DNA of 64,000 nucleotides from a candidate division FCPU426 bacterium. Lineage in GTDB: Bacteria > Oederibacteriota > Muellerivitia > Muellerivitales > Muellerivitaceae. The translations under genes were made by a program, and so were the position numbers. The DNA lies in contig CAVTWJ010000001.1 of the NCBI GenBank assembly GCA_963738405.1, forward strand, positions 160,001-224,000, read 5' to 3'. The notes below the pieces were generated by a model. That model had not been told where the DNA came from. It did not search any database and worked only from the letters and a program-made list of their open reading frames with translations. Within the stretch, counting starts at the first letter, position 1. Each line of letters begins with the position of its first letter. Of this stretch, positions 18,650 to 41,526 are shown piece by piece.

Positions 18650-19839
18650 GAATCAAACGGTATGAAGCTCCCACGATTCAAGAGGCTCTTATGAAAGTTA
18701 AGAAAGATTTGGGCCCTGAAGCGGTAATTCTTTACACGAAAACGTTCCGTAAGGGAGGGGTTTTGGGACTGTTTGGGAAACCGGTGGCGGAGATTACTGC
18801 GGGAGTAGAGCTGAATCTTATGGACGATATGGCTCGCCGCAAAGGATCTTCCTCGAATATTCCACCAATTTTGGAGCGGAGCGAGGTTACTTTACCACAG
18901 AATATTTTATCGCCCGCTGGACGTACGGTTGGAACGCTTGATCCTGCAAGAACAAAGGTTAAGGCTCTCCAAAGAGAATTAAACGAAATGAAAACTTCAA
19001 GCGTCGCAAGTTTAATCAAGGAAATGCAACGCCCCGAAAATGGTGCGATTTTGTCTGAAGGATTTAATAAATTAAAAAAGAAACTCGCCAAACAGGAAGT
19101 CGAAGAATTTTTGGTACAAAAAATTATTAAAGGGATGATTAATGAAAAAATAGATCCTGATCGTCCTGATGAGGTTCAATTGTGGATCAACAAACAAGTT
19201 GCGGCCTCTCTGAAAACGGCTCCTCCTATTTCCTTGGGTGGTTTTCAAAAAGTTATCGCTTTTGTTGGGCCAACCGGAGTTGGGAAAACTACCACCCTTG
19301 CAAAATTGGCAGCACGATTTAGTTTGATGGAAGGTAAAAAGGTTGCGATGGTTACGGCAGATACATACAGAATTGCCGCAACGGAACAATTAAGGACTTA
19401 TGGGCGAATCATGGGAATCCCAGTAGAGGTGGCAAATGGTTCGGACGAGATTATTTCTGTGCTTAATCGGCACAAGGGGGCAGATTTGATTTTGGTGGAT
19501 ACCGCAGGCCGTAGCCCTTCGAACGAAGAGCAATTGGAAGAGTTGAAAGAGTTTATCGCAAAAAGTCACGCAGATGAAATTCATTTAGTCTTGTCTGCCA
19601 CAACGAAATACTTAGATATGATTCGTATTATTGAACGATTTGGTATGGCTGCACCCATAAACAGGATGATATTTACTAAGTTGGATGAAACGCGTTTCTA
19701 CGGTGCGTTTTTAAATCTGATGAATAATTTCCAAATTCCACTGGCATATTATTCTACGGGTCAAAATGTTCCAGATGACTTGGAAGTGGCTGATGTCCCG
19801 TTGCTTGCGGAAAGAATCACAAAGGCTCTTTTAGGTTGA
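18646..19839 (+). CDS. flhF: SRP-family GTPase FlhF
   Basis: VKKDLGPEAVIL N-terminus, GPTGVGKTTT, DTAGRS, TKLDE, GQNVPDD. Confidence 0.97.
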   Translation: MRIKRYEAPTIQEALMKVKKDLGPEAVILYTKTFRKGGVLGLFGKPVAEITAGVELNLMDDMARRKGSSSNIPPILERSEVTLPQNILSPAGRTVGTLDPARTKVKALQRELNEMKTSSVASLIKEMQRPENGAILSEGFNKLKKKLAKQEVEEFLVQKIIKGMINEKIDPDRPDEVQLWINKQVAASLKTAPPISLGGFQKVIAFVGPTGVGKTTTLAKLAARFSLMEGKKVAMVTADTYRIAATEQLRTYGRIMGIPVEVANGSDEIISVLNRHKGADLILVDTAGRSPSNEEQLEELKEFIAKSHADEIHLVLSATTKYLDMIRIIERFGMAAPINRMIFTKLDETRFYGAFLNLMNNFQIPLAYYSTGQNVPDDLEVADVPLLAERITKALLG

Positions 19840-24480: not shown

Positions 24481-25125
24481 ATGGATAAAATTATTCCCTC
24501 AAATCCTAAATTAGTGCCTCCTGTTTCGGGTTTAATGAACAATAGGTCTAAAGGGTTTGACGAGGGAGAAACGGCCTTAATTGAGAAAGTGTTATCAAAA
24601 GGAGTTTATTTGGCAACGTTTCAAGGCGGAAACAGTGTCAAGGTGAAGGGGCCTGTAGGGTTAGACGTTGGGGTTCCTGTAAGGGTTTTTTGTTCGAATA
24701 AAGTGAATTCAGACTATGTGATTGGAAATGCTTTAGAAAATGCCTGGTTGTTAGAAAACGAAGCCGTATTAGCTCTAACAGCAGTTTTGCCTTTGGGGTT
24801 TGGAGGCAAAGGGGCGAAAGCAAAATTAGAAGTTTATACCCCTAAAGAAAAAAGGGGGATAAACAAAAATAAACTAATTTACTTTATTATTACACTCTCC
24901 ACGGAAGGTTTTGGGGATTTACAATGGATCATACATTTATGGAGAAGAATTGCGGAGGTCCAACTTTACGGAGGGGTGGTTAAAAAAGAAGGTGAAATCC
25001 AGAAAATTATTGAAGATGTTGAGAAGTGTATTTTGAGAGCAGGTTTTACTTTGTCGGGTCCTATCATCAGAATTAAAGAACCTTTTCAGATTCCGCAAGG
25101 TTTGCGGCTTGATTGGAGGGGTTAA
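24481..25125 (+). CDS. Hypothetical protein, possibly with a FliK C-terminal-like domain (YlqG-like)
   Basis: ITLSTEGFGDLQW beta segment; overlaps the following FlhB-C-like gene. Confidence 0.5.
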   Translation: MDKIIPSNPKLVPPVSGLMNNRSKGFDEGETALIEKVLSKGVYLATFQGGNSVKVKGPVGLDVGVPVRVFCSNKVNSDYVIGNALENAWLLENEAVLALTAVLPLGFGGKGAKAKLEVYTPKEKRGINKNKLIYFIITLSTEGFGDLQWIIHLWRRIAEVQLYGGVVKKEGEIQKIIEDVEKCILRAGFTLSGPIIRIKEPFQIPQGLRLDWRG

Positions 25126-25427
25126 TTTTGAGCCCGGCATCTAGGAAACGAAATACTCGCAAAGCCGCTGTGGCTCTGAAATATGACCGCGAATCAATGC
25201 CCGCCCCGAGGGTTGTGGCCAAAGGAAGAGGGCTCGTTGCTGACCGCTTAATCGATTTGGCAAGGAAAAATGGTATTCCGATTGTTGAAGACAAATTGTT
25301 AGTTGATGTGTTGGATTCTTTAAACGTAAATCAGGATATTCCTGGGGAACTTTATCAGGTTATTGCTGAGATTTTGGTGGCTGTTTACCGCGCTGAATCC
25401 GCCAAAAAAGACAAGCCGAAAGTATGA
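25113..25427 (+). CDS. Stand-alone FlhB C-terminal domain protein (FlhX/YlqH-like)
   Basis: AVALKYD...APRVVAKGRGLVADRLI...IPIVED...IPGELYQVIAEIL; start uncertain. Confidence 0.9.
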   Translation: MEGLILSPASRKRNTRKAAVALKYDRESMPAPRVVAKGRGLVADRLIDLARKNGIPIVEDKLLVDVLDSLNVNQDIPGELYQVIAEILVAVYRAESAKKDKPKV

Positions 25428-25535
25428 ATATAATGCTTTTAAGAGAATGTTGCTTTCGGGTAAATTATTTTGGTTTGAGTTTTATTCGCGCCTGTTAAAT
25501 TAGTGGTGGCGGGAAGGGCAAAGAAAGTGGAGCCA

Positions 25536-27662
25536 ATGACAAAGGAAAATACCAAGTGGCGTAGCAAGTTTCTTACGTCTTATTTACTTAGGGTTGGTTT
25601 CGCTTTCGCGCTTTACATTTTATTTATCAGCGTGGTTTCTGCGCAAAACAACGAATTGATTTTTGCCCGCCCTGATAGTTTAGGGGTTGGCCCTCGAGCC
25701 ATGGGGATGGGAGGCGCTTTTGCGGCTATCGCTGATGATGCCTCCGCTGCTTATTGGAATGTTGCGGGATTATCCCAGCTATCTTCATATGAGCTCTCTC
25801 TCTCGAGCGCTCCGGTTTATTTTACTGAAAATTTAAATGGGAATCTGGCTTTTGGGTTTCCTTATTACGCTTCAATACAGTTCATTTTGCCCATTGCAAA
25901 AGAAAATACTCTAGGCATTTCTCTTTTTCGTCCCTTTCATCCTCAAATAGATTTTTTTGCGGGAAATACGACTTTAAGCTCTATTCAAAGGGGCGAGGCG
26001 AGTTATCTTTTAAATCCGAGTTTTCAGGAAAGTGAAATAGTTTTGTCTTATGCGGCCCGATTTTCTGCGATTCAGAACTTTTCTGTTGGAATCAATGTTA
26101 AGCGCGTGACTAACGACCAGTATTACATCCGTTATTTTGGAGGGGACGCTCCAACATCAATTGCTTTGGCCGATCCGACGCAGGTAGTTGGTTATGGTGT
26201 TGATATTGGGTTGCTTTTTAGAATCCCTGTATCAAAATACACGGAAGAATTCCGTTTGGGGGTTGCGTTAAATAACCTTGTGGGTCGGGTTCAATACACG
26301 AACGGCCTACAGTTTTCTGATGGAGCGGCACATGTTTCGTTTAGCGTTGGCCCCGGGTATGAAACTTCTCTTCCTCCGGAAATCATTCTTGGCGTAGCCT
26401 ATAAAAATAATTATCTCTTCAAAATCCGTAATATAACTGATTTGGATTTTGATCAGATTTCCGATCCTCGGTTCGATGATTCTTCGCTTGCTTTGGCAAA
26501 CAAATTCTTGCGTTTTGGGACGGAATTTTGGTTTTTCAAAGATGTTTTGGGCTTGCGGGCCGGTTATTCTACTCCTTTTATTAGTCCAGGTACGATCTCA
26601 TTGGGCCTGAGCGTTCGCGTTCTTAATGGGGATTTTCAATCTGATTTAGCTTATTTAATGCCAGTTGGCCCCGAGGCCGATATTCAAGCCGGGTCATCAC
26701 TCCAAACGATCGATCAAGGTGGAATAAATTATGAGCCGTTCCATATAGCCTTAGCATATAGGTTTGGGGGAGGTGAAGAATTACCGCCGCCCAAGGTTGA
26801 CGCTTATGTTCAACCGCCTTCATTTACTCCGTCGCAAGGGGAATCAACAACTTTCTATTTAGATACCACGGAAGATGTTCCGGTCCAACGCTGGAGTGTA
26901 TTGATTTATGATCAAAATAATCATCTGGTGAGAAGGTTGCAAGGACAGGGAACCCCTCCAACGAAAATAGTCTGGGGTGGCGAAGATGATTTATATCGCC
27001 CTTTGCCTGGGGGCGTTTATTCTTGGGCTTTTCAAGTGGAAGACCAACTTGACCACATTGGGTCAACGCCCGTTATGACAGTTGAATTAATTACCCCTCC
27101 GGCGCCTTTGGCGAAGGATGCATCAAAACTAATGGCCATTCGACAGCAAGAAGCGGCCCTTTTGACTCAGGAAAGGGCAAATCTCACTTCTTTGGCGCAG
27201 CAAACATTAAAGGCGCTTTTGGGCGAGAGTAATTCAAACACTTCATTGGCGGCATCCATGCCCACGCCGGTAGATAGTGCGGGTAATACCCAGTACCCGG
27301 AAACAGGGGGCGTCCCATCAATCGGATTCCCAACTCTCACTCCTGATCAGCCCTTAAACGCACATTTTGACAAGAATCCAAATGGAGATGAGATTATTGC
27401 AGTAAGTTATAAATCGCAACAAAGTTATGTCCCCTATTTATACCAAGAAGCGGCGGACGTTATTAAAACAACCGTCAATTCAGTAGGAACGGGTTTAAAA
27501 GAGATTTCGACTCGTGTATATTATGGAAAAAATGAATTGGATCTGGTGACGGCTACCCAAGCTGCCGCCAATTATGCTTCTGGTAAGATTAGTCAATTGC
27601 AACTTATGCAATTGTCAGACATCCATATCAATGGTGTGAAGGTGGGGCCGAATGGTTATTAG
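25536..27662 (+). CDS. PorV/FadL-like outer-membrane beta-barrel fused to a FlgD-Ig-like domain and a further C-terminal region
   Basis: Signal peptide; GVGPRAMGMGGAFAAIADDASAAYWNVAGL; amphipathic strands ending AYRFG; then IYDQNNHLVRRL...WGGED...LPGGVY. Confidence 0.8.
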   Translation: MTKENTKWRSKFLTSYLLRVGFAFALYILFISVVSAQNNELIFARPDSLGVGPRAMGMGGAFAAIADDASAAYWNVAGLSQLSSYELSLSSAPVYFTENLNGNLAFGFPYYASIQFILPIAKENTLGISLFRPFHPQIDFFAGNTTLSSIQRGEASYLLNPSFQESEIVLSYAARFSAIQNFSVGINVKRVTNDQYYIRYFGGDAPTSIALADPTQVVGYGVDIGLLFRIPVSKYTEEFRLGVALNNLVGRVQYTNGLQFSDGAAHVSFSVGPGYETSLPPEIILGVAYKNNYLFKIRNITDLDFDQISDPRFDDSSLALANKFLRFGTEFWFFKDVLGLRAGYSTPFISPGTISLGLSVRVLNGDFQSDLAYLMPVGPEADIQAGSSLQTIDQGGINYEPFHIALAYRFGGGEELPPPKVDAYVQPPSFTPSQGESTTFYLDTTEDVPVQRWSVLIYDQNNHLVRRLQGQGTPPTKIVWGGEDDLYRPLPGGVYSWAFQVEDQLDHIGSTPVMTVELITPPAPLAKDASKLMAIRQQEAALLTQERANLTSLAQQTLKALLGESNSNTSLAASMPTPVDSAGNTQYPETGGVPSIGFPTLTPDQPLNAHFDKNPNGDEIIAVSYKSQQSYVPYLYQEAADVIKTTVNSVGTGLKEISTRVYYGKNELDLVTATQAAANYASGKISQLQLMQLSDIHINGVKVGPNGY

Positions 27663-29220
27663 GTTTGCAACCTTATCGATTCTTATTGGGATATCCATTT
27701 TAGGGCGACCTGTCCAAGCGGCGTTTGATAAGGGGGGGGTGACAGGAGATGGGGCTCGACCGCTAGGTATGGGTGGTGCTTTTGCTAGTGTTGCGGATTC
27801 TTCCGATGCGGTTTTTTACAACCCTGCTGGTTTAGTCCAAGTATTGCGGCCAGAGATTACCGGAATGGGAGCTGTTCTTTTGAACGGTAAGGAAGATCTT
27901 TTTGATCTGACTTATGTTCAACCTTTTGCGGATCAAATGGCTTGGGCCTTATCCACTCAACAGCTTTTGTTTTCGGATGGCACAGAAAATGATCGAATTT
28001 ATATTGGATCTTTTGCGGCTCCTCTTGCAGTAGATAAATCGATTTCATTTGGTATCAGCGCCAAACTTTATGGGGTGGATTCGCCCACGCAACCGGGGTT
28101 TCAAGCCAGTGGATTTGGTTTGGATATGGGTTTTCTATATCATCTTCCCATTTATGACCCCCGATACGGAAAACAAATTAACATAGGGCTTTGCGCTCAA
28201 GATTTGGACACCTCCATCCAATGGCAAGCTGGAAACACTGATCCGGTGGCCTTGGCTGTTAAGGGGGGAGTCAGCTATGAATTTACAGATGATTTGGTTA
28301 CGGCCTGGGAATTCGAAACTATCAATGATCCCAATGTTGGCCAGCATACCCTTCTTCATGCCGGAATCGAAGGTTGGTTTTTTTCTGATCAATTAGGTTT
28401 GCGGACCGGTTATTCCGATTTCATGACATTGCCGGGCCAATTTACGGCTGGCATCAGTTACCGTTCTCATACATGGGGAATCGATTATGCTTACATTGGT
28501 CATGCGCAATATTTAGGTTCTTCCCACCGTATTTCAGCTAGTTGGCGATTTGGGGATTCGTTTTTGGGAAAGGTGAAAAGTTTTATACCCGAGGGAGTTA
28601 CTTCTTATGTCGATGGTGACATTATCACCCTTCGTTGGATCAATTCACCTTCCATTTCTCTAGCGGGTTACAATGTTTATTTTTCCAAAACCACCGGTAG
28701 TGGGTATATAAAGATAAATCAAAAGCCAATAAAAGCAAATTACTATTCCTTGCGAGGATTGGAAAAAAATACCCATTACTACTTTGTTGTAACTTCTATG
28801 ACAAATACCGTTCCCCCTGTTGAAAGCCAATACTCCCGAGAGGTTATTGCCGGAACAACATCTGCTCCTGGAGCTCCCATAGTGGTTCAAAGCGAGTTGC
28901 AAAATGAAGGGGTTATTGATATTGCACGACAAGCCGGAATGGCAGGGTTCCCAGATCCTAGTAAAAATGGTTTAAAAGGTTATAATATCTACGTTTCAGA
29001 GGTGTCTGGTGGACGTTTTGATAAGGTGAATGCCCAGCCGATAGCGAATGTGCCTACATATCTTGTCCGGAAATTGAAAGTTGGACAACGATATTTCTTT
29101 TCTTTCACATCTGTTGGGTCAGATGGAACAGAAAGTGCTAGATCTCGAGAGGTTTCTGTTGTTGCGTTGCCTTATAGTACCGTTATTCAACCAACTTCAA
29201 CGACCTCGACGTCTCATTAA
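27652..29220 (+). CDS. PorV/FadL-like outer-membrane beta-barrel with two C-terminal fibronectin type III domains
   Basis: Signal peptide; GARPLGMGGAFASVADSSDAVFYNPAGL; barrel ends HRISASWRFG; two GYN(V/I)Y...L...Y(Y/F)F.(V/F)TS...ES..S repeats. Confidence 0.82.
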   Translation: MVIRFATLSILIGISILGRPVQAAFDKGGVTGDGARPLGMGGAFASVADSSDAVFYNPAGLVQVLRPEITGMGAVLLNGKEDLFDLTYVQPFADQMAWALSTQQLLFSDGTENDRIYIGSFAAPLAVDKSISFGISAKLYGVDSPTQPGFQASGFGLDMGFLYHLPIYDPRYGKQINIGLCAQDLDTSIQWQAGNTDPVALAVKGGVSYEFTDDLVTAWEFETINDPNVGQHTLLHAGIEGWFFSDQLGLRTGYSDFMTLPGQFTAGISYRSHTWGIDYAYIGHAQYLGSSHRISASWRFGDSFLGKVKSFIPEGVTSYVDGDIITLRWINSPSISLAGYNVYFSKTTGSGYIKINQKPIKANYYSLRGLEKNTHYYFVVTSMTNTVPPVESQYSREVIAGTTSAPGAPIVVQSELQNEGVIDIARQAGMAGFPDPSKNGLKGYNIYVSEVSGGRFDKVNAQPIANVPTYLVRKLKVGQRYFFSFTSVGSDGTESARSREVSVVALPYSTVIQPTSTTSTSH

Positions 29221-29240
29221 ACTGATATTGGAGTAATTCA

Positions 29241-30026
29241 TTGCCTAGCGGTTTATACATTGCGGCATCGGGAATGAATGCGACTTTGGCCCGTCAAGAT
29301 GTCATTTCTAATAATTTGGCCAATGCGAACACGGTCGGCTTTAAACAAAATCGATCAGTTGATATCGCATTTCCAACATATCTTATTGCCCGGCTTCATG
29401 ATCAACGTCTAAAGGTTATGGATGGAACGGCTGAATTGCGACCCTCCATTGGCGTAATGGGTGGCGGAGTGATTCCTCAAACGGTTGCGACTGACTATTC
29501 ACAAGGGGCCCATCTTGAAACTCAAAGCCCGCTGGATTTTGCGCTAAATGGTCCGGGTTTTTTTTCCGTGCTGGGGACGAATGGGAAAACATTTCTAACT
29601 CGAGATGGAAATTTTAGCTTGGATTCAAATGGTCGTCTTGTGACGAAAGATGGGTTGCCCGTGTTGGGCCACAATGGCGAAATATATATCGATGGAACCC
29701 AGGTAACAGCTGACCAAGAAGGTAATTTGACAGTCGACGGAAAAGCTTTGGATCAACTTCTGATTGTTAAAGTGAAAAACGAGAATCAACTAACTAAGGT
29801 GGGGCATTCGTTGTTTCAGGTTGAAGCCAAAAATCAAGTTGAGTTAATGCCTGAAGATGTTCAAGTTCAACAGGGCTTTTTAGAACAATCGAATGTGAAT
29901 TCAATGTCGGAAATGGTTAATATGATTGATACCTACAGATCCTATGAACTGAATTCTCGAATCATTGCTTCATATGATCATTTAATGGGAGAGGCAGCTT
30001 CGCAAATTGGGTCGCTGAAAGTTTGA
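29241..30026 (+). CDS. flgF: Flagellar rod protein FlgF (FlgF/FlgG family)
   Basis: DVISNNLANANTVGFK, TRDGNF, GFLEQSNVN; immediately upstream of flgG. Confidence 0.9.
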   Translation: MPSGLYIAASGMNATLARQDVISNNLANANTVGFKQNRSVDIAFPTYLIARLHDQRLKVMDGTAELRPSIGVMGGGVIPQTVATDYSQGAHLETQSPLDFALNGPGFFSVLGTNGKTFLTRDGNFSLDSNGRLVTKDGLPVLGHNGEIYIDGTQVTADQEGNLTVDGKALDQLLIVKVKNENQLTKVGHSLFQVEAKNQVELMPEDVQVQQGFLEQSNVNSMSEMVNMIDTYRSYELNSRIIASYDHLMGEAASQIGSLKV

Positions 30027-30053
30027 TAATGGGTTAGTAGACGTTTAATTTTT

Positions 30054-30133
30054 ACGGCCGGACTGCTTTTGCGGAGGCCGTTTTACCGCTGAACGATTGA
30101 GGCGGTATTGTTCAAGCTGATAGAGGGCTTGAA
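30054..30133 (+). ncRNA. Candidate cis-regulatory structured RNA in the flgG leader (three hairpins)
   Basis: ACGGCC-GGA-CTGC-TTTT-GCGG-A-GGCCGT; TACCGCT-GAACGATTGA-GGCGGTA; TTCAAGCT-GATAGAG-GGCTTGAA; ends just before RBS AAGGAGG. Confidence 0.6.
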
Positions 30134-30148
30134 ACCAAGGAGGCTTCC

Positions 30149-30949
30149 ATGATGCAGTCGCTTTACACGGCCGCGACAGGTATGGCCGCACAGCAGTTGA
30201 ATATCGATACGATTTCGAACAACCTCGCTAACGTCAGCACAACAGGCTTTAAAAAACAACGTGTTGATTTCCAAGATCTACTTTACATCAATCTGAAACC
30301 TTCCGGGACTCCAACTTCACCTGATACCAATACTCCGGTTGGACTGCAAATCGGCGAGGGAGTTAAGCCGGTTTCTACACAGCGCATATTCACTGAGGGC
30401 GCGATACAAAATACCAATAACCCATTGGATATTCTTATCGAAGGAAACGATAGTTTCTTTCAAGTGACCTTACCAAACGGTGAAACGGCCTATACCCGGG
30501 ACGGATCGTTCACTCAAGATGCGAACGGAAATATCGTTACCGCCGATGGATATTTTTTAAATCCGCCAACACAGCTTCCTGCAGACACATCCTCTATTCA
30601 AATTACCACCAATGGCCAGATCATGGTGCAAACAGCAAGCAGTGCCGGCCAATCAGTTCAAGTTGGGCAGTTGGAACTTACTCGGTTTGTAAATCCCGCA
30701 GGTTTGATGGCCACGGGGAACAATTTATTCCTTGCAACGGCGGCTTCGGGAGATCCAATTCAGGGTACGCCTGGATCGACGGGATTTCCTAACGTTCAGC
30801 AGGGTTCTTTGGAAGAATCAAACGTTGATGTTGTCGATGAAATGGTTAACCTCATCGTGGCTCAAAGGGCTTATGAACTTAATTCAAAAGCGGTCTCGAC
30901 CTCCGATTCCATGCTCTATGATATTACAACGATGAAGCAGTTCCCCTGA
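30149..30949 (+). CDS. flgG: Distal rod protein FlgG
   Basis: AATGMAAQQ..IDTISNNLANVSTTGFKK..FQDLLY, YTRDGSF, LEESNVDVVDEMVNLIVAQRAYELNSK. Confidence 0.97.
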   Translation: MMQSLYTAATGMAAQQLNIDTISNNLANVSTTGFKKQRVDFQDLLYINLKPSGTPTSPDTNTPVGLQIGEGVKPVSTQRIFTEGAIQNTNNPLDILIEGNDSFFQVTLPNGETAYTRDGSFTQDANGNIVTADGYFLNPPTQLPADTSSIQITTNGQIMVQTASSAGQSVQVGQLELTRFVNPAGLMATGNNLFLATAASGDPIQGTPGSTGFPNVQQGSLEESNVDVVDEMVNLIVAQRAYELNSKAVSTSDSMLYDITTMKQFP

Positions 30950-30961
30950 TGATTTAGCCGC

Positions 30962-31939
30962 ATGAGGATTTTGGTTTTAATGGGCCTGTTTGGGTGCGGA
31001 GTTTGCCATATGCCCCTGTTATGTGCTGAAAAAACAGTAACCATTCGTCTGGTTGATCAAGCTACCGTTGCGGGACCGAATATCGTTTTGGGTGACATAG
31101 CTGTGTTGGACGGTGAGGATAAAGTTGAGGTTGATCGCTTGGACCGAATGGTAGTGGAAAGGGCCGCGCCAATGGGGCAGAAGGTATCCGTTGCCCAAAC
31201 CGCTATAAAAATAGCTCTTAGTCGAGAAGGTTATTCCCCGAATGAGGTTCAACTTGTGGGCGCTGAATCATCCCTGGTTTTGACACAGACCCAGGAAGTG
31301 ACTCCCGGCCAATTGTTAGTGGCTGCTCAATCTTTTATTCTTTCCCAGACCGGGGAAGATCCGAGAAATTTGAAAATTAAGCTTTTGGGGCCGCTAAAAA
31401 ATCTGGTGATCCCAACTGGGAATTTGGGGATTCATTATCGTCCGGCCCTTGTTGGGCAATACGAAGGCGTGCAAATATTAACTGCTGAATTGACCGTTGA
31501 TGGTCGCAGTATTCGATTGGTTCCTGTTAGGTTGGATGCTCAGATTCTTCATGCCGTTGTTCAAACCACCAGGGCCATAAGCAAAGGGGATAAATTTACG
31601 GTTGATAATGTTTCGCTAGGGACGCTTCCCACCTCGCAAATTTTAAAGGGAACCCTTCAACACCTAGATGACGTCTTAGGCCGGAGCGCGGCCTTTGATC
31701 TAAAATCTGGGACTCCGGTTCGTTTTAGCGAAATAAATGACCCTCCGGTTATACGCCACGGTAGCATTGTTCAGGCATTTGTTGAAACCGGAAATATAGA
31801 AATCGTTGTTCATGCGCGGGCCGTCGCCGATGGAAAAGCCGGTGAAGAGATCCTTGTTGAAAACACTGATTCACATAAAATCTTGAAAGCCAAGGTTTTG
31901 GATGAAAACAGTGTTTTAATTGACCCGATGAAGCCGTGA
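30962..31939 (+). CDS. flgA: P-ring formation chaperone FlgA
   Basis: Signal peptide, SAF-like domain, ARAVADGKAGEEILVENTDSHK. Confidence 0.9.
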   Translation: MRILVLMGLFGCGVCHMPLLCAEKTVTIRLVDQATVAGPNIVLGDIAVLDGEDKVEVDRLDRMVVERAAPMGQKVSVAQTAIKIALSREGYSPNEVQLVGAESSLVLTQTQEVTPGQLLVAAQSFILSQTGEDPRNLKIKLLGPLKNLVIPTGNLGIHYRPALVGQYEGVQILTAELTVDGRSIRLVPVRLDAQILHAVVQTTRAISKGDKFTVDNVSLGTLPTSQILKGTLQHLDDVLGRSAAFDLKSGTPVRFSEINDPPVIRHGSIVQAFVETGNIEIVVHARAVADGKAGEEILVENTDSHKILKAKVLDENSVLIDPMKP

Positions 31940-31954
31940 GTTGCGGGAGGAAAT

Positions 31955-32578
31955 ATGTGTTATAAAATGTTAAGAATTTTGTGGTTCGGGATGATATGGC
32001 TGGTTTTGCCACCCCAAATTGTAAGGGCGGATTCTATCTATCCGCTTGAGGGTTCCTCCTCTATCTATACTGAGAAACGTGCCCACAGGGTTGGTGATGT
32101 CATTACAGTCATGATTCAAGAAGACACGCAGGCAAGCCAAGGCGCCAGCAGTCAAAACCAAAAAACGGCCAGTCTGGCTTTAGGAGCTGGGACCGGATAC
32201 TTGGGAGCTGGTACCTACGGTTCAAACATATTAAACAGCAATAGCCAAATCGGTGTTGGGGCCAGTTCTGGACATCAAGGTCAAGGCTCGACGAGTCGTG
32301 GAACAACCATTACGGGTCAAATGACGGCAAAGATCGTTTCGGTGCTACCCAATGGGAATTTCCAGATTGAGGGAGCAAGGTATGTTGAGGTTAATGAGGA
32401 AAAACAAACGGTCGAAGTGGTCGGAGAAATAAGGCCAGATGATATTTCAAGGGACAACACAGTGCCTTCATCGCGCGTGGCAGACGCTAAGATTAAAATT
32501 ACGGGGACGGGCCCGGCCTCCGAATCGGCTAAACCGGGAATTCTTACTCGTGTACTGGGTTGGTTGGGTCTTTTTTAA
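31955..32578 (+). CDS. flgH: Flagellar L-ring protein FlgH
   Basis: RAHRVGDVITV, VLPNGNFQIEG, GEIRPDDISRDNTVPSSRVADA. Confidence 0.95.
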   Translation: MCYKMLRILWFGMIWLVLPPQIVRADSIYPLEGSSSIYTEKRAHRVGDVITVMIQEDTQASQGASSQNQKTASLALGAGTGYLGAGTYGSNILNSNSQIGVGASSGHQGQGSTSRGTTITGQMTAKIVSVLPNGNFQIEGARYVEVNEEKQTVEVVGEIRPDDISRDNTVPSSRVADAKIKITGTGPASESAKPGILTRVLGWLGLF

Positions 32579-32588
32579 AGGAAAAAAC

Positions 32589-33707
32589 ATGAAGAATAAT
32601 TTAGGTTTTCTTGGCGGATTAATCCTTGCTTTCGTGACAATTGGATATTTACCAGTAAATGCCGCTCAGGTACGCCTCAAGACGATCGCACAAGTTAAGG
32701 GCGTTCGAGAAAATCAGTTGATAGGATATGGCTTGGTGGTAGGTCTACAACGAACCGGTGATACTCAAAGGGTCGTTTCCACCCTTCAAAGTATTACCAA
32801 CATGCTTATGCAATTCGGCATAAAAATTAATTCTGATCAAATTCGGACCCAGAATGTTGCCGCAGTCATGGTAACGGCCCAGTTACCAGCGCTTTTGCAA
32901 TCAGGAGACAAAATCGATGTCGTTGTTTCCTCGGTAGGAGACGCTCGGAGCCTTCAAGGCGGAAATTTGCTAATGACCCCGCTCCAAGGCCCGGATGGTC
33001 AAGTTTACGCTGTTGCCCAAGGACCTCTCGCTGTTGGGGGCTATTCGGACAACACCGGAGAATTTCCTCTTATCCAGGTGGATACGACTACCACGGGTCG
33101 GGTTCCTAATGGTGCCATGGTAGAAAGGGAAGTGCCGTCTTCATTCATTGACAACAACACCATTTCAATCCTTTTGGATCGTCCGGATTTCAGTCAAGCG
33201 TCGCTTGTGACGCAAGCATTGAACCAGCAATTTGGTGAACCAGTGGCACGGGCGGTTGACGGCGGACAAATTGATGTGAAATTACCTCCCAATTACCAAG
33301 ATAACATTGTGGATTTCATCGCGGCCGTGGAAGAAACACAAGTTCAAACGGATTCCCCTGCCAGCAGAGTTGTTGTAAACGAAAGAACGGGAACGGTAGT
33401 TTTGGGACAGGATGTTCGAATCGACGCCGTCGCGATCGCACATGGGAATCTTCGTTTGGTTATCAAGAAAACAACCCAAATATCTCATGACGCTGTCTTT
33501 GGCCATGATGAATTGACACACACGACAACCGTTTCCGCAGAAGATACGGGCAAACAAGGAAACTTAGTTGTCCTTCCAGAAGGCGCAACACTTCTTGACA
33601 TCGTAACCGCAGTTAACGCGGTTGGCGCGACTCCGCGGGACCTTATTTCTATTCTTCAGGCGATTAAGGAAGCGGGGGCTCTTCACGCGGATCTAACGAT
33701 TCTTTAA
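32589..33707 (+). CDS. flgI: Flagellar P-ring protein FlgI
   Basis: GVRENQLIGYGLVVGL, NVAAVMVTA, VVVNERTGTVV, ILQAIKEAGALHA; ATG 32589 begins a signal peptide. Confidence 0.97.
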   Translation: MKNNLGFLGGLILAFVTIGYLPVNAAQVRLKTIAQVKGVRENQLIGYGLVVGLQRTGDTQRVVSTLQSITNMLMQFGIKINSDQIRTQNVAAVMVTAQLPALLQSGDKIDVVVSSVGDARSLQGGNLLMTPLQGPDGQVYAVAQGPLAVGGYSDNTGEFPLIQVDTTTTGRVPNGAMVEREVPSSFIDNNTISILLDRPDFSQASLVTQALNQQFGEPVARAVDGGQIDVKLPPNYQDNIVDFIAAVEETQVQTDSPASRVVVNERTGTVVLGQDVRIDAVAIAHGNLRLVIKKTTQISHDAVFGHDELTHTTTVSAEDTGKQGNLVVLPEGATLLDIVTAVNAVGATPRDLISILQAIKEAGALHADLTIL

Positions 33708-33721
33708 TTCGGGGGACTGAT

Positions 33722-34180
33722 TTGAATCCAAGTGTTGCAGCGGTGAATAACCTTCAACCCTTTATTCATGCCGTTTCTTCTGGCAATAATTCATTTTCGA
33801 GTGACTCCCAATTGGCGGCACAAACGCTCATGGGAAACACGCTTATGTCTCATGTGCCTTCCTTATCGAATCCAAATCAATTGAATTCCTTGCGGCCTGT
33901 TTTTGATCTGAATTCAAACCATGTTCATTCGGAAGCTCAGCTTCGAAAAGTTTCGAAAGATTTTGAAACGATCTTTTTACAGATGATGTTAAAGGAGATG
34001 CGTAATTCCGTTCAAAAGTCTGGCCTTATGGGTGATTCCCAAGCGACAAGCCTATTTGAGTCAATGCAAGACGAGCAAATTTCCCGTCAACTGGCTTCCG
34101 CGGGCGGAATTGGAATTGGAAACATGATTTATGGACAATTAGAGAAAGCCGTAGCTCCCCATCAAAAATCGTTTAAATGA
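33722..34180 (+). CDS. flgJ: Rod-binding protein FlgJ (no muramidase domain)
   Basis: LRKVSKDFETIFLQMMLKEMR...GGIGIGNMIYGQL. Confidence 0.9.
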   Translation: MNPSVAAVNNLQPFIHAVSSGNNSFSSDSQLAAQTLMGNTLMSHVPSLSNPNQLNSLRPVFDLNSNHVHSEAQLRKVSKDFETIFLQMMLKEMRNSVQKSGLMGDSQATSLFESMQDEQISRQLASAGGIGIGNMIYGQLEKAVAPHQKSFK

Positions 34181-34614
34181 CTTGGGCCAACTGTTCCCGT
34201 TGTGGCAAAGCCTATACCCAAATGACGGTTGGAATGAATATTTGCCAAATTTGCGCCAAAGAAGAAGACGACAACTTCACGTTGGTTTTTAGGTATCTTT
34301 CCACCCGCCCCGCTGCTACAGCCCAAGAAATTGCCCAAGAAACCGGTGTTGATATTAAAGAGATTTATAAATATGTGCGGGAAAACCGGCTTCGACTTGT
34401 AAAAAATGATGCTGGTTTTTTTTGCGAAGGGTGTGGAGTGCCCATTTCGCAGGGAAAAAGGTGCGAAAAATGCTTTCGAAAACTGACGATTGAATTTCGA
34501 AATGATATAACCAAAACTATGGAAAATCGAAAAAATTCCTCTGAAAACCATAGTTTTTCCTCTCGTGATCCCCAAAAAGGCCCTAAATACCTTAAAAAAT
34601 ATAGAGGCGAATAA
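34177..34614 (+). CDS. YvyF-like flagellar operon zinc-ribbon protein
   Basis: ANCSRCGK...ICQIC...CEGCG...CEKC (four CxxC) around an HTH-like EIAQETGV; directly before flgM. Confidence 0.85.
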   Translation: MTWANCSRCGKAYTQMTVGMNICQICAKEEDDNFTLVFRYLSTRPAATAQEIAQETGVDIKEIYKYVRENRLRLVKNDAGFFCEGCGVPISQGKRCEKCFRKLTIEFRNDITKTMENRKNSSENHSFSSRDPQKGPKYLKKYRGE

Positions 34615-34673
34615 AACGAGCCTTTTGAACGGTTTTCCTCCCTTCTTTTCCACCATTCATCAAAGAATTTAGC

Positions 34674-34700
34674 TCAAGTTTTCCATTTAGGAGCCGTTAG
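34674..34700 (+). promoter_or_regulatory. Sigma28-type promoter of flgM-flgN-flgK-fliK
   Basis: TCAA-N15-GCCGTTAG; canonical sigma28 spacing; same motif recurs before flgD. Confidence 0.75.
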
Positions 34701-34728
34701 GTTTATCAGAAAACCTAAGGAGATCCCC

Positions 34729-35016
34729 ATGAAAATCGACGGATTTCAAAACATCCCAGCCATTCTTCAATCATTTCAAAAAACGACTCAGCCCTCTCAA
34801 AAATCTGAAATCGAAGGTTCCTTCAGTTCGGTTTCCTTGAGCTCGTTTGGGGAAGTGCTTCAGTCTTTGCAACGCCAATCAGCTCAAACTTCTCAGGCAA
34901 ATGCCAAGAAAATTGAGCAATTAACTCAACAAATCGAATCAGGCAAGTATCAAGTCGATCTTAATAAACTTGCCACAAAGTTGGTTGATTCAAATATTAT
35001 CGATTTCAAGGGTTAA
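34729..35016 (+). CDS. flgM: Anti-sigma28 factor FlgM
   Basis: SVSLSS...KIEQLTQQIESGKYQVD...LATKL; AAGGAG RBS. Confidence 0.92.
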   Translation: MKIDGFQNIPAILQSFQKTTQPSQKSEIEGSFSSVSLSSFGEVLQSLQRQSAQTSQANAKKIEQLTQQIESGKYQVDLNKLATKLVDSNIIDFKG

Positions 35017-35018
35017 TC

Positions 35019-35504
35019 ATGATTCAGCAGTATCAAAAGCTCGTAGCTGAGTTAAAAAACGAAAGGGCCTGCTATACCCGTTTGGCTTCATTAGCATCGG
35101 AGCAAAAACAATTTCTCGTTTCCGGCGAATTGGACAAAGTGGCCGATAACCTGAAACGTCAAGAAAAAGAGGTTTTTGCCTTATCACCCCTATTGGGTGA
35201 AAGAAACGACCTTTCGGACGTCTTGGGGAAGGCTCACAAAATATCCAACGCGACTTTGGCCCAAATTATTCAAAACGCGCCACTGGAAATCATTGAAGAG
35301 TTAAAAATGGCCGTGATTGATTTGGTTCGCTCGGCCAAGGAACTAGAAGACATTAACCAAGGCAACGAAAAGCTCGCGAACAACGCCTTGTCACTCGCCG
35401 ATTTGACCCTTAAGGCTTTAGTGGGGAAGGGGCGTTCCAATTCGGGCTCCCCATCCCCGAAAAAAGAAGAAGCCAAATCGTCTTTCGTCAACCGCGTGGT
35501 TTAG
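35019..35504 (+). CDS. flgN: Export chaperone FlgN
   Basis: Helical protein with ELEDINQGNEKL; located between flgM and flgK. Confidence 0.85.
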   Translation: MIQQYQKLVAELKNERACYTRLASLASEQKQFLVSGELDKVADNLKRQEKEVFALSPLLGERNDLSDVLGKAHKISNATLAQIIQNAPLEIIEELKMAVIDLVRSAKELEDINQGNEKLANNALSLADLTLKALVGKGRSNSGSPSPKKEEAKSSFVNRVV

Positions 35505-35513
35505 GAGGCTGGA

Positions 35514-37871
35514 ATGATCAGTGGGTTTCAAAGTTTAAGCACTATTAACAGCGGGTTGATTCTCCAGCAATTGGAGCAGGATGTAACTGCTTCCAACCTT
35601 GCCCAGCCTTCGCTTGATTCCCAAGGCTACCTGATGAACAGCCTAGAACGCGTTAACCCCGGTTCCGCTCCGTCTCTGTCCTTTAACGGCGCCAATGGGT
35701 TCATGTCGATTGGAAACGGCGTAACTGTTGATTCAATTACTCGCCTTCGAAATTCATTCTTGGATAACCAAATCCGCCAGGAAAGTTCACTTGTGGGTTA
35801 TGACGAAATTTTAGCCAATTCCACCGGGAGCGGTGTTCTTAACCAAATAAACTCAATCATCAATGCCTCCCCAACTACCACGCTTAATTACGCACTAACT
35901 CAATTTCAATCAGCTTGGCAGACTTTAGGGGCTAACACCAATCCGGCTCTCGATTTAGCAGATGGGGCCTCGGTAGTAAGCGCAGGAACGGCGTTTGCCC
36001 AGATGGCCAACAGCCAATACAACCAATTGCAGGGCTTGCAGATTACCTACAACAACAATATCCAAGGAACGGTTAACCAGATCAATCAGTTGTTTCAACA
36101 GTTGAATTCTATCAATGTACAGCTTAACTCGACTCAGGGATCTAACCAAAACACCTTGTTAGATGCCCGGGATTACGCTTTAGATAAACTCTCTCGGCTC
36201 ATGAATTTTCAGGTCACCTTTGGCAACAACGGTACGGCGAGCCTTTTCCTTAATGGGATTTCACTTGTGGGACCAAGTGGAGCGGCCCAACTCCAAGCAA
36301 ATATACCTGACCCAAACAATCCTGCTCTCGTGAATATTACGCTTGAACCCTTTAACAGTTCCGTTCCGATGGAAACTGGGGGAGGGATAGTACCTGTTGC
36401 AATACCTTCGATAGTCGATCTCACAACTCAGATCACGGGAGGCAACCTGGGTGGGTATTTACAAGCTCGAAATGTCATCTTGCAGTCTTATAAGCAGCAG
36501 GTAAATCAAGCTACGACAGCCGCTATGAATTTTACGAACACACTCCAATCCGCCGGTTTTGCATCAAATGGTGTAACAACGGGTACTTTGTTTTTTGAGG
36601 GCACTGGGGCCTCAAATATCGTGGTGAATGGTGTTTTAACCACAAATAGTGGGCTAGTTGCGGAGTCGAGCGTGGCCTTTGGAGCAGCTGGCGCTGTGGC
36701 CTATCCCGGAGCACCGGTTACTGGAAACCAGCAAATCGCGCAAATGCTTGGCGGGGGGAACTATGGGGCAAGTCCTATAATAAACCCAGGTCTGATGAAT
36801 CTCATGGCGCAAAATTTTTCGGCTAGTGCTAAGGCTATTGGCATTCCAAATCCCTACGCCGCTTTGGGTTTGACAGGCTCCGCTTCAATCGATGGGGTAA
36901 CTATTTCTTATGTTCCCACCGATACCATTTCAAGCATTTTGCAGCAGATTAATAACAATGTTTCGGGTGTAACTGCTGTTTACAATTCTTCCAGCCAGCA
37001 ATTTTTCATTTTTTCTCCAAATCCTGTAAACATCACCGATATCTCCGGCCTGAACCCCTTTGCAAACAGTACTGCGGCCGGGGCGGGTTGGACTAACCTG
37101 TCGAATTTTATGGTCGGAACTTCGACCCTCAATAATAGTTTTACGCCTAATCAGGCAATAGTGCAGTCTGGTGGCGCTCCCATGAATTCAATTGCCTCCA
37201 TAGTTCCTGGCAACGGCCCAAATGATTCTGCCTTTGCCGTGACACCATCCACAACTGGCTCCTTTACGGTTAATGGAGTAGCCGCTCCAATTCAATGGAA
37301 CAATACTCAGTCTTTAAATACGATCCGGCTTCAAATCAACGCTTCAACCGCTGGGATCGCATCCCAAGCATTAGCGCCTCCCAATATTTTGTTTTCGCCT
37401 TTTTTTGGCGGTAACTCAGTCCAAATATTCAAAATGCAATCAGATCAGCCGATGCAAATCACCGACATTTCGGGAAATTTTACATCGGTAGTCGGCCTTA
37501 ATAACAACACCGAAACTTTGGGACAACTTTCGAACTCCATTCTTGGGCAAGTAAATACAGAATTATCCAGCCAACAGATGGCAACCGGTCAAGCCCAAGA
37601 TTCGCTCAACCAACTCAACACCGCCCAAGCCAATATTGCCGGTATCTATACTGGGGGTTCCTCGCCCGTAACCACGGCTTCGGGGATACCGACCTCCTCC
37701 AATTCGGGGGTTCCCCTGGCTTCCATACAACAGCAAGCCACCCAGGCTGCGACGACTTACAACGCTTTATTAGAAATTATGCAGGTAATTGACAATATGT
37801 ATCAAAATTTAATCAACGTTGTAGGCGGGGGAACGACCAGTAGTAATTCAAACAATACTTTCCAGGGTTAG
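35514..37871 (+). CDS. flgK: Hook-associated protein FlgK, divergent and with internal insertions
   Basis: IGNGVTVDSITRLRNSFLDNQIR, LLDARDYALDKLS, TGGNLGGYLQAR, degenerate SGVPL C-terminus; follows flgN. Confidence 0.85.
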   Translation: MISGFQSLSTINSGLILQQLEQDVTASNLAQPSLDSQGYLMNSLERVNPGSAPSLSFNGANGFMSIGNGVTVDSITRLRNSFLDNQIRQESSLVGYDEILANSTGSGVLNQINSIINASPTTTLNYALTQFQSAWQTLGANTNPALDLADGASVVSAGTAFAQMANSQYNQLQGLQITYNNNIQGTVNQINQLFQQLNSINVQLNSTQGSNQNTLLDARDYALDKLSRLMNFQVTFGNNGTASLFLNGISLVGPSGAAQLQANIPDPNNPALVNITLEPFNSSVPMETGGGIVPVAIPSIVDLTTQITGGNLGGYLQARNVILQSYKQQVNQATTAAMNFTNTLQSAGFASNGVTTGTLFFEGTGASNIVVNGVLTTNSGLVAESSVAFGAAGAVAYPGAPVTGNQQIAQMLGGGNYGASPIINPGLMNLMAQNFSASAKAIGIPNPYAALGLTGSASIDGVTISYVPTDTISSILQQINNNVSGVTAVYNSSSQQFFIFSPNPVNITDISGLNPFANSTAAGAGWTNLSNFMVGTSTLNNSFTPNQAIVQSGGAPMNSIASIVPGNGPNDSAFAVTPSTTGSFTVNGVAAPIQWNNTQSLNTIRLQINASTAGIASQALAPPNILFSPFFGGNSVQIFKMQSDQPMQITDISGNFTSVVGLNNNTETLGQLSNSILGQVNTELSSQQMATGQAQDSLNQLNTAQANIAGIYTGGSSPVTTASGIPTSSNSGVPLASIQQQATQAATTYNALLEIMQVIDNMYQNLINVVGGGTTSSNSNNTFQG

Positions 37872-37886
37872 GAAAGGGAGAACATT

Positions 37887-40800
37887 GTGAAAAGTATAAG
37901 CGAACTTTTAGACAGCCTTTCGGCCAAACAAACCGATACCACCCTAAACCCGACGGGGGTTGTTAACCCTTCTGGAAATGGGGCTGGATCGAATAACAAT
38001 TCTTTTGGCCAGGTTATCGCCAAAATTTCAAACCAGCAACAAAACGCCAACAATAACAATCCAGTTCCGTTGACTGCGAATCATTCTGCGACAACGCCGG
38101 TTGTGTCGCCTTCTGCTGTAACTCCTGCAACCTCGACCGCCCAAACGCCTTCTCTCTTAACGGGTTCGACAGGGGCCAACCAAGCCGCCCAAGACACACT
38201 TCTTGTTATCGAAAAACTTCAAGGCGTCAAACCCCAAGATGTGGCTGCGATTGAAAAAGCTTTTTTTGCCATGGCTTCGGGTTTGGCCAATCTTCTTTCT
38301 CAGGCTCAACAGCTAACGGGTGAAAATTCTAGTCAGCTTCAAGCCCAATTGGTCGCCAATTCGGGGGGGCAAATTACTCCCGCCGAAGCATCCCAATTGG
38401 TTTCGGCGGTTCAAACTTTCGTGCAAAACCTTCCTCAGGGACAAAACCCGCTTGATTTGAATAAACAGGACCAAAACCAGCTTGTGGGCCAAATGCTTCA
38501 ACAAATGCTTCAGAATCAACAGGTTGCCTTTGCGCTTGCGCCGCAGGCCGCTACTCAGGGGGACAATCAATCTGTTAACACGACTTCATCCATATCCTCG
38601 ATTGCGCAATCAAATGTTCTTTCTAATGTCACTTTGCGGTTTATGTTTGCTGATGGACAAATCAGCCAAACCTCTGCGACGGGGAATCAGAACAGCGGGG
38701 TTCAAGTTAATTTCCAAAGCGCCGGGGTGCAGGTTCTAACTCAAACTTTTAACACACAAAACTCTTTAGGGAGTATTGGTTCGGATTCCCTCCCGCAGGC
38801 ATCGCTTCATTCAAACCAGCCTATTTTAAACAGAACGGTCAATTTTCAACCGATTTCGCAGGATACGGTGAATTCAATATTGAATACCCTGTCCCAATTA
38901 GGAGCGCAACAAACTACCAATCTTCCAGTTACCATTGTTAATCCCACTGTTTTAGGTCAAGGGCAACAAAACGCTGCCAATGGCCAGAATCTCCAGGCTC
39001 TCTTTAAGGTGTTGCTACAAGCCGGTGCTGGTCCGGTCATGCTTCAATCATCCATGGCACAGCAGGGAACCACCGCAAATAATCCTAATTCGCAGGCAAC
39101 AACCCAAACTGGAAATCTTTTCACGCAATTTTCTGAAACCATTACCGGGTCTATCCAATCCGTTTCGGTCCAGCCAATTGCGAGCGCTCAAAACACCGAA
39201 AATCCAACCATCAATCAGAATTCTTTCCCTTCGGCTCTGATTTCGCAAAACGCCGGTAATACTCCTGTCAATTTAAAACCGATACCCCAAACAAGCACAC
39301 AACCCACAGGTAACATCTCCAACAATTCCAACCTCTTACCTCAGAACGGCGCCCAAACCCCCGAAAACCTTGCGGTTAGTCCTAAGGCTGTTACTTCGAC
39401 ACAGGGAAACAATCAAACCCTCCAACCGCAAAATCAAACCGCGGCCAATGCTCCTAATGTGGGTAATGCCCAATCCTTCTGGTCGTCAGTTAATTTTCGA
39501 CGGATTAACGATCTGGTGCTTCGATTTACCAATTTCATCGGCCAATCCAATACAGCGGTTGCGGTTCAATCTGCGGCGGGTCAGGGTCCCGCTCCCGTAG
39601 CCATTGCCAATACCCCTAGCGCTATTACCGCTCAGGTTGGCTCTTCCGTCGGCCCCCAGGCATCTCCCATCGCTATAGCCCAATTGCCAAATGGGGATCA
39701 GCAAGAAATCGTCAACAATGTTTTGACGCCGAATACCATTCAAATTCAGCCAATTCCGATACCCAATGCTCCTGTTACCACAACAACTCGGATTCAAACA
39801 CAAGATCAAATCCATTTGTCCCAATCTCAACTGTCTCAACAAGACGCTTCAGTGTTGAACCAAAATCAAACCCCCATTTCTCCATTGGCCTCCAATCCCA
39901 TTCAATCTGAATCAAACCAAAACTCGCAAAATTCAACTCAAACGCAAGTGATAAGTTCTGTTTCTCCCTTAATTCCAACGAACACCACGGTTAACAGCGC
40001 AACACCCTTAAATAATAACCCGGCTGTGGTTACTTCTTTTGGAACCTCGAATTCCGTTGCGTCTTCCGCCAATATTAATCCCGCACCGCCTTCCGCTGTT
40101 TCGGGGCCTCCTGTGCTTCCTGGAACACAGGTTGTCACGCTTTCTCAGCCAGTCCCACAATCCAATTCGACCCAACCCTCGCAAGGTGGTTCGATAGCTC
40201 TGACATCAAATGCCCTAAATCAAGCACAGGATCCGGGTCTTTCGACACCGCCGGTATCCTTGGCACAAAATCTGTCCGGCTCCGTCGCAGCAGTTAACCT
40301 ATTTGCCCAAGGAATTCCGCAAAATCAGTCGAATCACACTCAAACTCCAATAACCGCTAATCCGGTTCAGCCCTCCGGAACTATTTCAACGGCTACACCT
40401 CAGGCAGTGTCGGCAGTAACAAATGTGGGTGCTTCGGAGAACCTGAAGCCTATCGGAGCACAAGAAAAGAGCCCTCTAACCGACCTTATGTCTTCCCAAA
40501 ACCAGCCAGCTTTAGCCTCTAATGGCGTGGTTTATACCCTTGGGAAAAATGGGGAACTTCAATCGATAAATCCAGCGGGTAATCAGGTGCCGGTCAACGT
40601 TCAAGACCTGATTCGTCAGATTTCAAATCAAATTTCTGGAAAAACGGGTGATTTGAAAGCTACTTCTACCATCAGTTTTCAATTGTCGCCTGAAAACTTG
40701 GGAAGAATGACGATCCAGGTTTCCATGGCCGATCAATCGGTTTCGGCGAGAATTCTCGTGACAAACTCGGATGTCCGGGACGCCCTTCAACAGCATTTAG

Positions 40801-41033: not shown

Positions 41034-41055
41034 TACGTTTTTAGCGGGTAAGGGC

Positions 41056-41082
41056 TCAAGTTTTTCGGCATAATGCCGTTAG
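41056..41082 (+). promoter_or_regulatory. Sigma28-type promoter of flgD-TIGR02530-flgE
   Basis: TCAA-N15-GCCGTTAG; shares GCTCAAGTTTT and GCCGTTAG with the flgM promoter. Confidence 0.72.
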
Positions 41083-41109
41083 AAATTGTAAGAAAGAGGG
41101 GTGATTTTC

Positions 41110-41526
41110 ATGATTTCAGGAGTTAGCGGAAACTCGAACAACAACTCCATTTCGAGTGCGTTGTCAAGCGCTACCGGTAGTAATCAATTCGTGTCAGAAA
41201 ACACTTTTTTAACTCTTCTGATTACGCAGTTGAAGAATCAGGATCCGATGAATCCCCAGGACAGCAGTCAGTTCGTGGCTCAGTTGGCGTCATTTTCTTC
41301 GTTGGAACAAATGACGGCAATCAATACCTCGATGCAGAATGTTTTGGATAATTCGTCGACCAGTTTGATCGGTCAACACGTGTCGTTGCTCGATGCGTCG
41401 GGAAGTTTGGTTCAAGGTACGGTGACCGGCATTGTTTATTACGCCAATACGCCGGCGGTTCAGGTCAACGGGCAGAACTATCCCTTGTCGGATATTCAAA
41501 ACGTTGGGAATATTGTAGGTCAGTAA
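41110..41526 (+). CDS. flgD: Hook capping protein FlgD
   Basis: FLTLLITQLKNQDPMNP...FVAQLASFSSLEQM. Confidence 0.96.
   Translation: MISGVSGNSNNNSISSALSSATGSNQFVSENTFLTLLITQLKNQDPMNPQDSSQFVAQLASFSSLEQMTAINTSMQNVLDNSSTSLIGQHVSLLDASGSLVQGTVTGIVYYANTPAVQVNGQNYPLSDIQNVGNIVGQ

Follow-up and report, generated by a model that had tools for sequence, protein, structure and literature searches.

A small hairpin, H1, in which an unpaired GGA faces a bulged A, occurs in the leaders of both the distal rod gene flgG and the hook gene flgE, and sequence comparison supports reading it as a sense-strand mRNA structure that is conserved and covaries. The element can be classed as a new motif within a known general type, the cis-acting mRNA leader structure, and is probably a hitherto undescribed element controlling the mRNA of two flagellar genes. 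Its most likely function is that of a candidate protein-recognition hairpin or mRNA stabiliser that would set FlgG and FlgE output in polycistronic mRNAs.

The window (the whole 64,000-nt stretch of DNA that was analysed) carries a single large flagellar cluster, encoded on the + strand, whose order is fliF to fliA, two PorV-like genes, flgF, flgG, flgA, flgH and flgI, and which continues after flgI with an flgJ-like gene, yvyF, flgM, flgN, flgK, fliK, flgD, a TIGR02530 gene and flgE. The genes on which the analysis turns were assigned with NCBIfam models: flgF (29241-30026, + strand; TIGR02490, E 1e-52), the cistron 5' of the flgG leader; flgG (30149-30949, + strand; TIGR02488, E 1e-104); and flgE (42085-44121, + strand; NF004241, E 1e-77). 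Both leaders are intercistronic and on the + strand, that of flgG being the 122-nt gap after flgF (30027-30148) and that of flgE the 88-nt gap after the TIGR02530 gene (41997-42084). The Shine-Dalgarno sequence of flgG, AAGGAGG (30137-30143), and its ATG start at 30149 (together 30137-30151, + strand) are kept in the close relative L001; that of flgE, AAGGAG, with the ATG start at 42085 (together 42072-42087, + strand), was placed from the sequence and by comparison with L001.

A sigma-28-type promoter, TCAAGTTT-N11-GCCGTTAG, lies before flgD (41056-41082, + strand) and has an exact twin before flgM (34674-34700, + strand). Both copies are retained in L001, and the pattern resembles the sigma-28 consensus TAAAGTTT-N11-GCCGATAA. 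Given this promoter before flgD, flgE is the third cistron of a flgD-TIGR02530-flgE unit, and a FliA-dependent hook operon looks likely. Such apparent FliA dependence would be unlike the enteric flagellar hierarchy.

Within the window, H1 (30054-30081, + strand; ACGGCC-GGA-CUGC-UUUU-GCGG-A-GGCCGU) and its twin in the flgE leader, H1e (42014-42040, + strand; CGGGCU-GGA-CCUC-CUA-GAGG-A-AGCCCG), were both recovered by minimum-energy folding and by a scan for their common build, in which an outer stem of 6 bp and an inner stem of 4 bp are set apart by an unpaired GGA on the 5' side and a bulged A on the 3' side, and a short loop closes the inner stem. In H1, the outer stem of 6 bp is G+C-rich, and the inner stem of 4 bp is closed by a UUUU loop. 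The scan was defined as 6 bp, GGA, 4 bp, a loop of 3-6 nt, 4 bp, A and 6 bp with stem letters left free, and on both strands of the window it returned two matches, H1 and H1e. On 200 dinucleotide shuffles the mean was 0.005 matches, with two matches in none of them, although the scan is not a blind test because the build was defined from the two copies themselves. Put fairly, a window that already holds one copy would be expected to hold another in about one case in several hundred. An outer stem relaxed to 4 bp produced zero extra matches in the window, and a search with the pattern GGCYGGAC..GGARGCC gave two occurrences there, at the H1 and H1e sites only.

The earlier note had described three hairpins in the flgF-flgG gap, a single architecture shared by the first of them and the flgE hairpin, and retention of GGC(C/U)GGAC...GGA(G/A)GCC in both. 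These descriptions are borne out: the minimum-energy fold of the 122 nt gives H1, H2 and H3, the letters are as written there, both build-scan matches (2/2) fall on the two hairpins, and the pattern is found at both sites and nowhere else in the window. The overall fold energies are unremarkable for the flgG leader (z -1.89; 9/200 shuffles fold equally well) and for the flgE leader (z -1.33; 19/200).

Loci of relatives were obtained by a scan of genome contigs with a FlgI alignment, which favoured near-universal peptides. The best 80 of at least 600 stretches were taken, and comprised one close relative (L001) and 79 distant loci. FlgI of L001 is 91% identical to that of the window; the FlgI family includes approximately 70 clusters at 69-95% identity from uncultured bacteria, and falls to approximately 50% in other phyla; RuvB behaves likewise. 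L001 and the window are collinear at roughly 69-72% nucleotide identity. H1 is 86% identical in L001, with the differences restricted to the apical loop (UUUU in the window, AAUA in L001) and the last base, and with the stems and the GGA/A internal loop otherwise identical; H1e is identical at 27/27 nt. The flanks are 40-61% identical, versus 69% across the whole region: 40% for the 27 nt 5' of H1, 41% for the stretch 3' of H2 and 61% for the 17 nt 5' of H1e. Because the two flgG leaders are separated by indels of 7, 8 and 9 nt, this leader is not coding.

A second lineage was reached with covariance model R1, built from the window and L001 flgG leaders only (59 positions, 17 pairs) and searched against the window and the 80 loci (1.5 Mb; 3 Mb over both strands). 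Besides its parents, the model matched, with 31 bits and E 1.1e-5 in 3 Mb, positions 7466-7523 of L013, which lie in sense orientation within the 95-nt flgF-flgG gap of a G+C-rich Bacillota MAG. In this locus spoIID and mreB/mbl genes precede flgF and flgG, which are followed by flgA, flgH and flgI. The match covers hairpins 1 and 2, which read GGGGCU-GGA-CUU-UUUU-AAG-A-GGCCCC for H1 and GGUCGCC-GACCGACUGA-GGCGGCC for H2.

Since MAFFT misaligned the 3' half of H1 where loop lengths differ, pair tables were built by coordinates from the flgG leaders of the window, L001 and L013 and the flgE leaders of the window and L001, and an alignment carrying two spurious L013 minus-strand rows was kept out of the counts. 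Pairing holds in 98% of the 49 cells of the three flgG leaders, with two-sided changes at 5/17 pairs, counts that lean towards structure because only three sequences enter them and the alignment was fitted to the model. Neither covariation value was reached by any of 500 shuffles, and sliding the partners gave 35-56% paired. The covariation comprises few events, as H1 is represented by three independent sequence types. The motif had been proposed from the window as a covarying one, and with pairing kept through those five two-sided changes it does covary; homologous leaders in L001 and L013 carry the covarying pairs, so the proposal does not fall for want of either.

The link between the flgG and flgE copies was examined with model R2, made from the three flgG leaders only (window, L001 and L013). 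Among its best non-parent matches R2 ranked the flgE hairpins of L001 (16.4 bits; E 1.9 in 3 Mb, 0.16 in 127 kb) and of the window (15.5 bits; E 3.1 in 3 Mb, 0.26 in 127 kb), these scores being weak because H2 is missing from the flgE leader. When H1 is compared between the flgG and flgE leaders, pair 2 varies as C-G/G-C, pair 6 as C-G/U-A/U-G and inner pair 3 as G-C/U-A. On the strength of the build scan, the fixed core GGCY-GGA-C..G-A-RGCC and these pairwise changes, a common origin or a common partner appears the better reading of H1 and H1e.

Folding and the pair tables place a further hairpin downstream of each of these, with compensatory changes in L001. H2 of the flgG leader (30084-30107, + strand) has a 7-bp stem and a conserved 10-nt loop, GAMCGAnnGA, which is kept in all three flgG leaders (in L001 as GAACGA..GA); its stem changes G-C>A-U and U-G>C-G in L001 and U-A>G-C and A-U>G-C in L013. 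H2e of the flgE leader (42047-42065, + strand; 7 bp, loop CUAAU) changes C-G>U-A, G-U>G-C and G-C>G-U in L001. Its loop is unlike that of H2 in the flgG leader, and H1 alone is therefore common to both leaders. The third hairpin of the flgG leader, H3 (30111-30133, + strand), is outside the conserved core in the fold. It lies directly 5' of the Shine-Dalgarno sequence, ending at 30133 where the latter begins at 30137, as had been claimed. Its inclusion in the conserved element fails, since L001 has after a 9-nt insertion a different hairpin of other sequence, size and position, and L013 has no comparable H3, only a 4-bp hairpin. In the window the H2 and H3 loops do resemble each other as GCUGA..GAG(G)GC, but H3 of L001 lacks this likeness and L013 offers no counterpart, and it is best read as chance. 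Shine-Dalgarno sequestration is absent from the predicted folds of the flgG and flgE leaders, and thus no switch is visible.

The five leaders contain seven G-U pairs, which would become A-C mismatches if read on the opposite strand, and the 3-nt versus 1-nt asymmetry of the internal loop is retained in 5/5 H1 copies; together the G-U pairs and the lopsided loop favour sense-strand RNA over a symmetric DNA operator. In the fixed core (GGCY-GGA-C...G-A-RGCC) the unpaired GGA facing the bulged A is clamped by sequence-conserved G-C pairs; outside this core both stems show covarying pairs, and the apical loop has drifted. Fixed GGA, A and adjoining G-C pairs combined with covarying stems and a drifting loop form the pattern of a protein or tertiary recognition site. 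In the mechanism proposed here H1, joined by H2 in the flgG leader, would be a structured sense-mRNA element in the intercistronic leaders of long flagellar transcripts; a trans-acting RNA-binding factor would bind the flgG and flgE leaders and tune translation and/or decay of these cistrons, whose products would be two axial parts required in far more copies than the product of the preceding cistron. Rod and hook copy numbers are from Salmonella work. That H1 is a putative binding site of such a factor is the preferred, still tentative reading, with a likelihood a little short of even.

The binding, the partner and the direction of the effect are inferred, as is the co-regulation of rod and hook put forward in the earlier note, and a CsrA-type GGA binder would be the sole candidate partner that can be named. 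In hag of B. subtilis, CsrA binding sites are found in the flagellar mRNA leader. The GGA is unpaired in the internal loop of 5/5 H1 copies, as the CsrA/RsmA core requires. In the co-immunoprecipitation data reported for C. jejuni CsrA, flgE was enriched 68x and flgG2 44x, and the C. jejuni flaA leader described in the same source likewise has an unpaired GGA in a leader hairpin of a flagellar structural mRNA (PMC4894983). The CsrA/RsmA flagellar leaders covered there have a further GGA within the Shine-Dalgarno sequence, and the GGA of the sites they contain lies in an apical ANGGA loop (PMC4894983), whereas that of H1 lies between two helices. The apical loops of H1 are UUUU, AAUA and CUA and contain no GGA. 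Also unlike CsrA/RsmA sites, H1 has a bulged A opposite the GGA and conserved neighbouring G-C pairs, and its targets are rod and hook genes where those of CsrA flagellar leaders are flagellin. The Shine-Dalgarno sequences here all contain GGA, as most do, and lie approximately 55-75 nt from the H1 GGA; a second GGA on the 3' strand of H1 is absent from L013. Neither csrA nor fliW was found in the 64-kb window (40 + 25 + 15 ORFs scanned).

The strongest alternative, although a clearly less likely one, is processing followed by stabilisation, in which an endonuclease would cut the A+U-rich single strand 5' of H1 and the G+C-rich hairpin would cap the new 5' end, leaving the flgG and flgE segments longer-lived than the cistrons 5' of them, with no need for a specific binding factor. 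Mechanisms of this kind are known from ompA, papBA and cggR-gapA, where, as with H1, a G+C-rich hairpin follows an A+U-rich stretch, and the cistrons on either side differ in how much product is called for. A U-rich unpaired run directly 5' of H1 in 3/3 flgG copies is consistent with it, the flgE copies being moderately A+U-rich, as are the position of both leaders inside operons before a higher-copy subunit and the small hairpin that Pseudomonas loci, too, keep 5' of the flgG Shine-Dalgarno sequence. A stabiliser needs stability and not sequence, yet neither the GGA nor the bulged A nor the four pairs next to them vary between the two deep lineages or between the two paralogous leaders, whereas a weak U-G pair is accepted; the 10-nt loop of H2 is conserved too. 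The ompA, papBA and cggR-gapA stabilisers are defined by position and stability, whereas the element described here also conserves particular unpaired nucleotides and has a second hairpin whose loop is conserved.

A more speculative and rather improbable version of protein recognition would make H1 the address tag of a dedicated non-CsrA RNA-binding factor, acting as a rod/hook-stage checkpoint on the mRNA. If so, the factor would make FlgG and FlgE translation, or the positioning of their mRNA at the export gate, depend on how far assembly has advanced, much as FliW-CsrA acts on flagellin one stage later, and the tag would be common to the lineage of the window and some diderm Bacillota.

Second-messenger riboswitches exist before flagellar operons, and a small-molecule riboswitch, with the H1 internal loop and the H2 loop forming a ligand pocket that controls flgG, would account for two adjacent hairpins with conserved unpaired nucleotides and covarying stems. 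It is nevertheless very unlikely: no Rfam family matched even at E up to 10, the flgE copy is without the H2 loop, and an expression platform was not seen, there being no conserved terminator and no sequestered Shine-Dalgarno sequence. By eye, no pseudoknot partner for the H2 loop is conserved in the three leaders, and the same inspection of the window, L001 and L013 found no conserved pseudoknot, anti-Shine-Dalgarno sequence or leader peptide. A kink-turn reading was also rejected. The kink-turn consensus has a 3-nt bulge followed by tandem sheared G-A/A-G pairs; in H1 the 5' strand after the outer stem is GGA-CU or GGA-CC, with no GA after the 3-nt bulge.

An intrinsic terminator or attenuator after flgF, made of H1 and a following U run, has little to commend it beyond the UUUU after H1 in the window. 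The sequence 3' of H1 is GUUU in L001 and GGGGG in L013, and 3' of the flgE copies it is AAAUUC/GAAUCA; with the U run present after the window flgG copy only, H1 is not a conserved terminator. A promoter and terminator scan of 25001-45000 gave nothing at the leaders, this site included, with totals at or below shuffle expectation, and termination here would reduce a subunit that is required in larger amounts.

To a similarly slight degree could H1 be a DNA-level site, either an operator bound by a transcription factor dimer or a piece of an internal promoter. It is an intergenic imperfect palindrome, and a weak -10-like TTTAAT lies 5 nt before it in the window. Against this, G-U pairs and the conserved 3/1 asymmetry break DNA symmetry, the stems covary and half-site sequence is not retained, and the -35/-10-like hexamers are lost in L001; no conserved promoter-like element was found before H1 in the scans or in the comparison of the window with L001. 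The sigma-70 scan and the sigma-28 pattern of the lineage give nothing there: on the + strand TCAAGTTT-N11-GCCGTTAG matches only at flgM and flgD, with none in the flgG or flgE leaders, and on the - strand it has eight weak matches with 2-4 substitutions. A sigma-54 reading of H1 was rejected by eye on a misfit of spacing to the consensus. Chance resemblance of two unrelated hairpins, to which a build defined after the fact and a weak model score between the paralogous copies (E 0.16-0.26) would lend some room, is scarcely credible when shuffles yield 0.005 per window, both copies are kept in L001 and the L013 flgG copy lies at the same gene junction.

The element could not be assigned to a named RNA family in the earlier note, and Rfam 15 agrees. 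With its 4227 models at gathering score only a tRNA (49575-49647) passed in the whole window, and a permissive search (E up to 10) of both leaders, L013 and a further locus, L038, gave no relevant match. The flg-Rhizobiales motif and c-di-GMP riboswitches are Rfam cis-regulatory RNAs near flagellar genes; they are likewise structured RNAs 5' of such genes, and Rfam 15 gives no match to them here. The full-text literature searched describes no motif in the flgF-flgG or flgE leader, although a listing in a motif catalogue may exist. The antisense RNA over flhO-flhP reported in PMC5540618 is, as presented there, a different element.

Post-transcriptional flagellar control is known mainly for flagellin (FliW-CsrA) and master regulators, and how very unequal amounts of rod and hook subunits are set from single long operons is poorly understood. 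An H1 hairpin on exactly the two high-copy axial subunits offers a concrete handle on this unequal output. It is a sequence-specific hairpin, conserved with covariation in two deep lineages and open to experimental test, and would enlarge the known set of bacterial cis-regulatory RNAs by one new family.

The distribution of the motif is narrow. Among the best 80 of at least 600 stretches, 69 loci hold flgG, and the gap upstream of it was defined via the upstream ORF in 65/69 and inspected directly in the other 4; most of these gaps are < 70 nt. The motif stands before flgG in L001 and L013 only, and at 2/69 flgG loci of the best 80 it is not general across phyla. A relaxed build scan of the 80 loci returned 16 rows, of which four were the two L001 sites, one the L013 flgG leader and one a site inside L013 flgF, with 10 further rows. 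In L025 (Selenomonadaceae), a candidate before flgG was rejected as a plain hairpin with GGCGGACUG from which the internal loop is absent.

R2 also matched L038 at 19166-19224 (E 0.004 in 3 Mb), where no flagellar gene adjoins. In the best fold of this site a long-range helix takes up the 5' arm of the supposed H1 and replaces it, and the match was excluded from all pair counts. The L038 region (19155-19345) is flanked by an EF-hand-like gene and a gene for outer-membrane efflux, and contains a 10-bp long-range helix, an H2-like loop GACCGAUUGA and then a terminator-like hairpin. It had no match in Rfam, and on this predicted fold it could be a small RNA. In the Pseudomonas loci (L041-L078) the flgF-flgG gaps are 45-68 nt and hold a small conserved hairpin of the GCGCC-N8-GGCGC type immediately 5' of the flgG Shine-Dalgarno sequence; it shares the junction with H1 but is another element.

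Several other features of the cluster were recorded. A MerR-family regulator of 99 aa (window 1325-1624) occupies the 650-nt space from a GAF-GGDEF gene (3-1163) to flgB (1817). An FlhB C-terminal-domain protein stands alone (TIGR00789, 104 aa, 25113-25427), and full-length flhB is also present (15431-16483). An adjacent pair of PorV/PorQ-family outer-membrane proteins, of 719 and 522 aa, lies within the flagellar cluster (window 25503-29220), between the FlhB-C-terminal-like gene and flgF, and is likewise placed in L001 (2895-6612); a third PorV-like gene is found at 48472-49482.

The L001 flgG leader (7419-7553) folds far better than its shuffles (z -3.66; 0/200), with a long-range helix that pairs its 5' end with the Shine-Dalgarno region and that has no equivalent in the window fold. 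The TIGR02530 gene (window 41586-41996) has 92% nucleotide identity to L001, with 61-78% in neighbouring genes, and the fliK-flgD gap (41034-41100) has 91%. At codons for identical residues, synonymous change relative to L001 is 20% in the TIGR02530 gene, 33% in flgD and 54-59% in flgF, flgG, flgH, flgI and flgM. This conservation of the TIGR02530 gene points to nucleotide-level constraint or recent exchange just 5' of the flgE leader.
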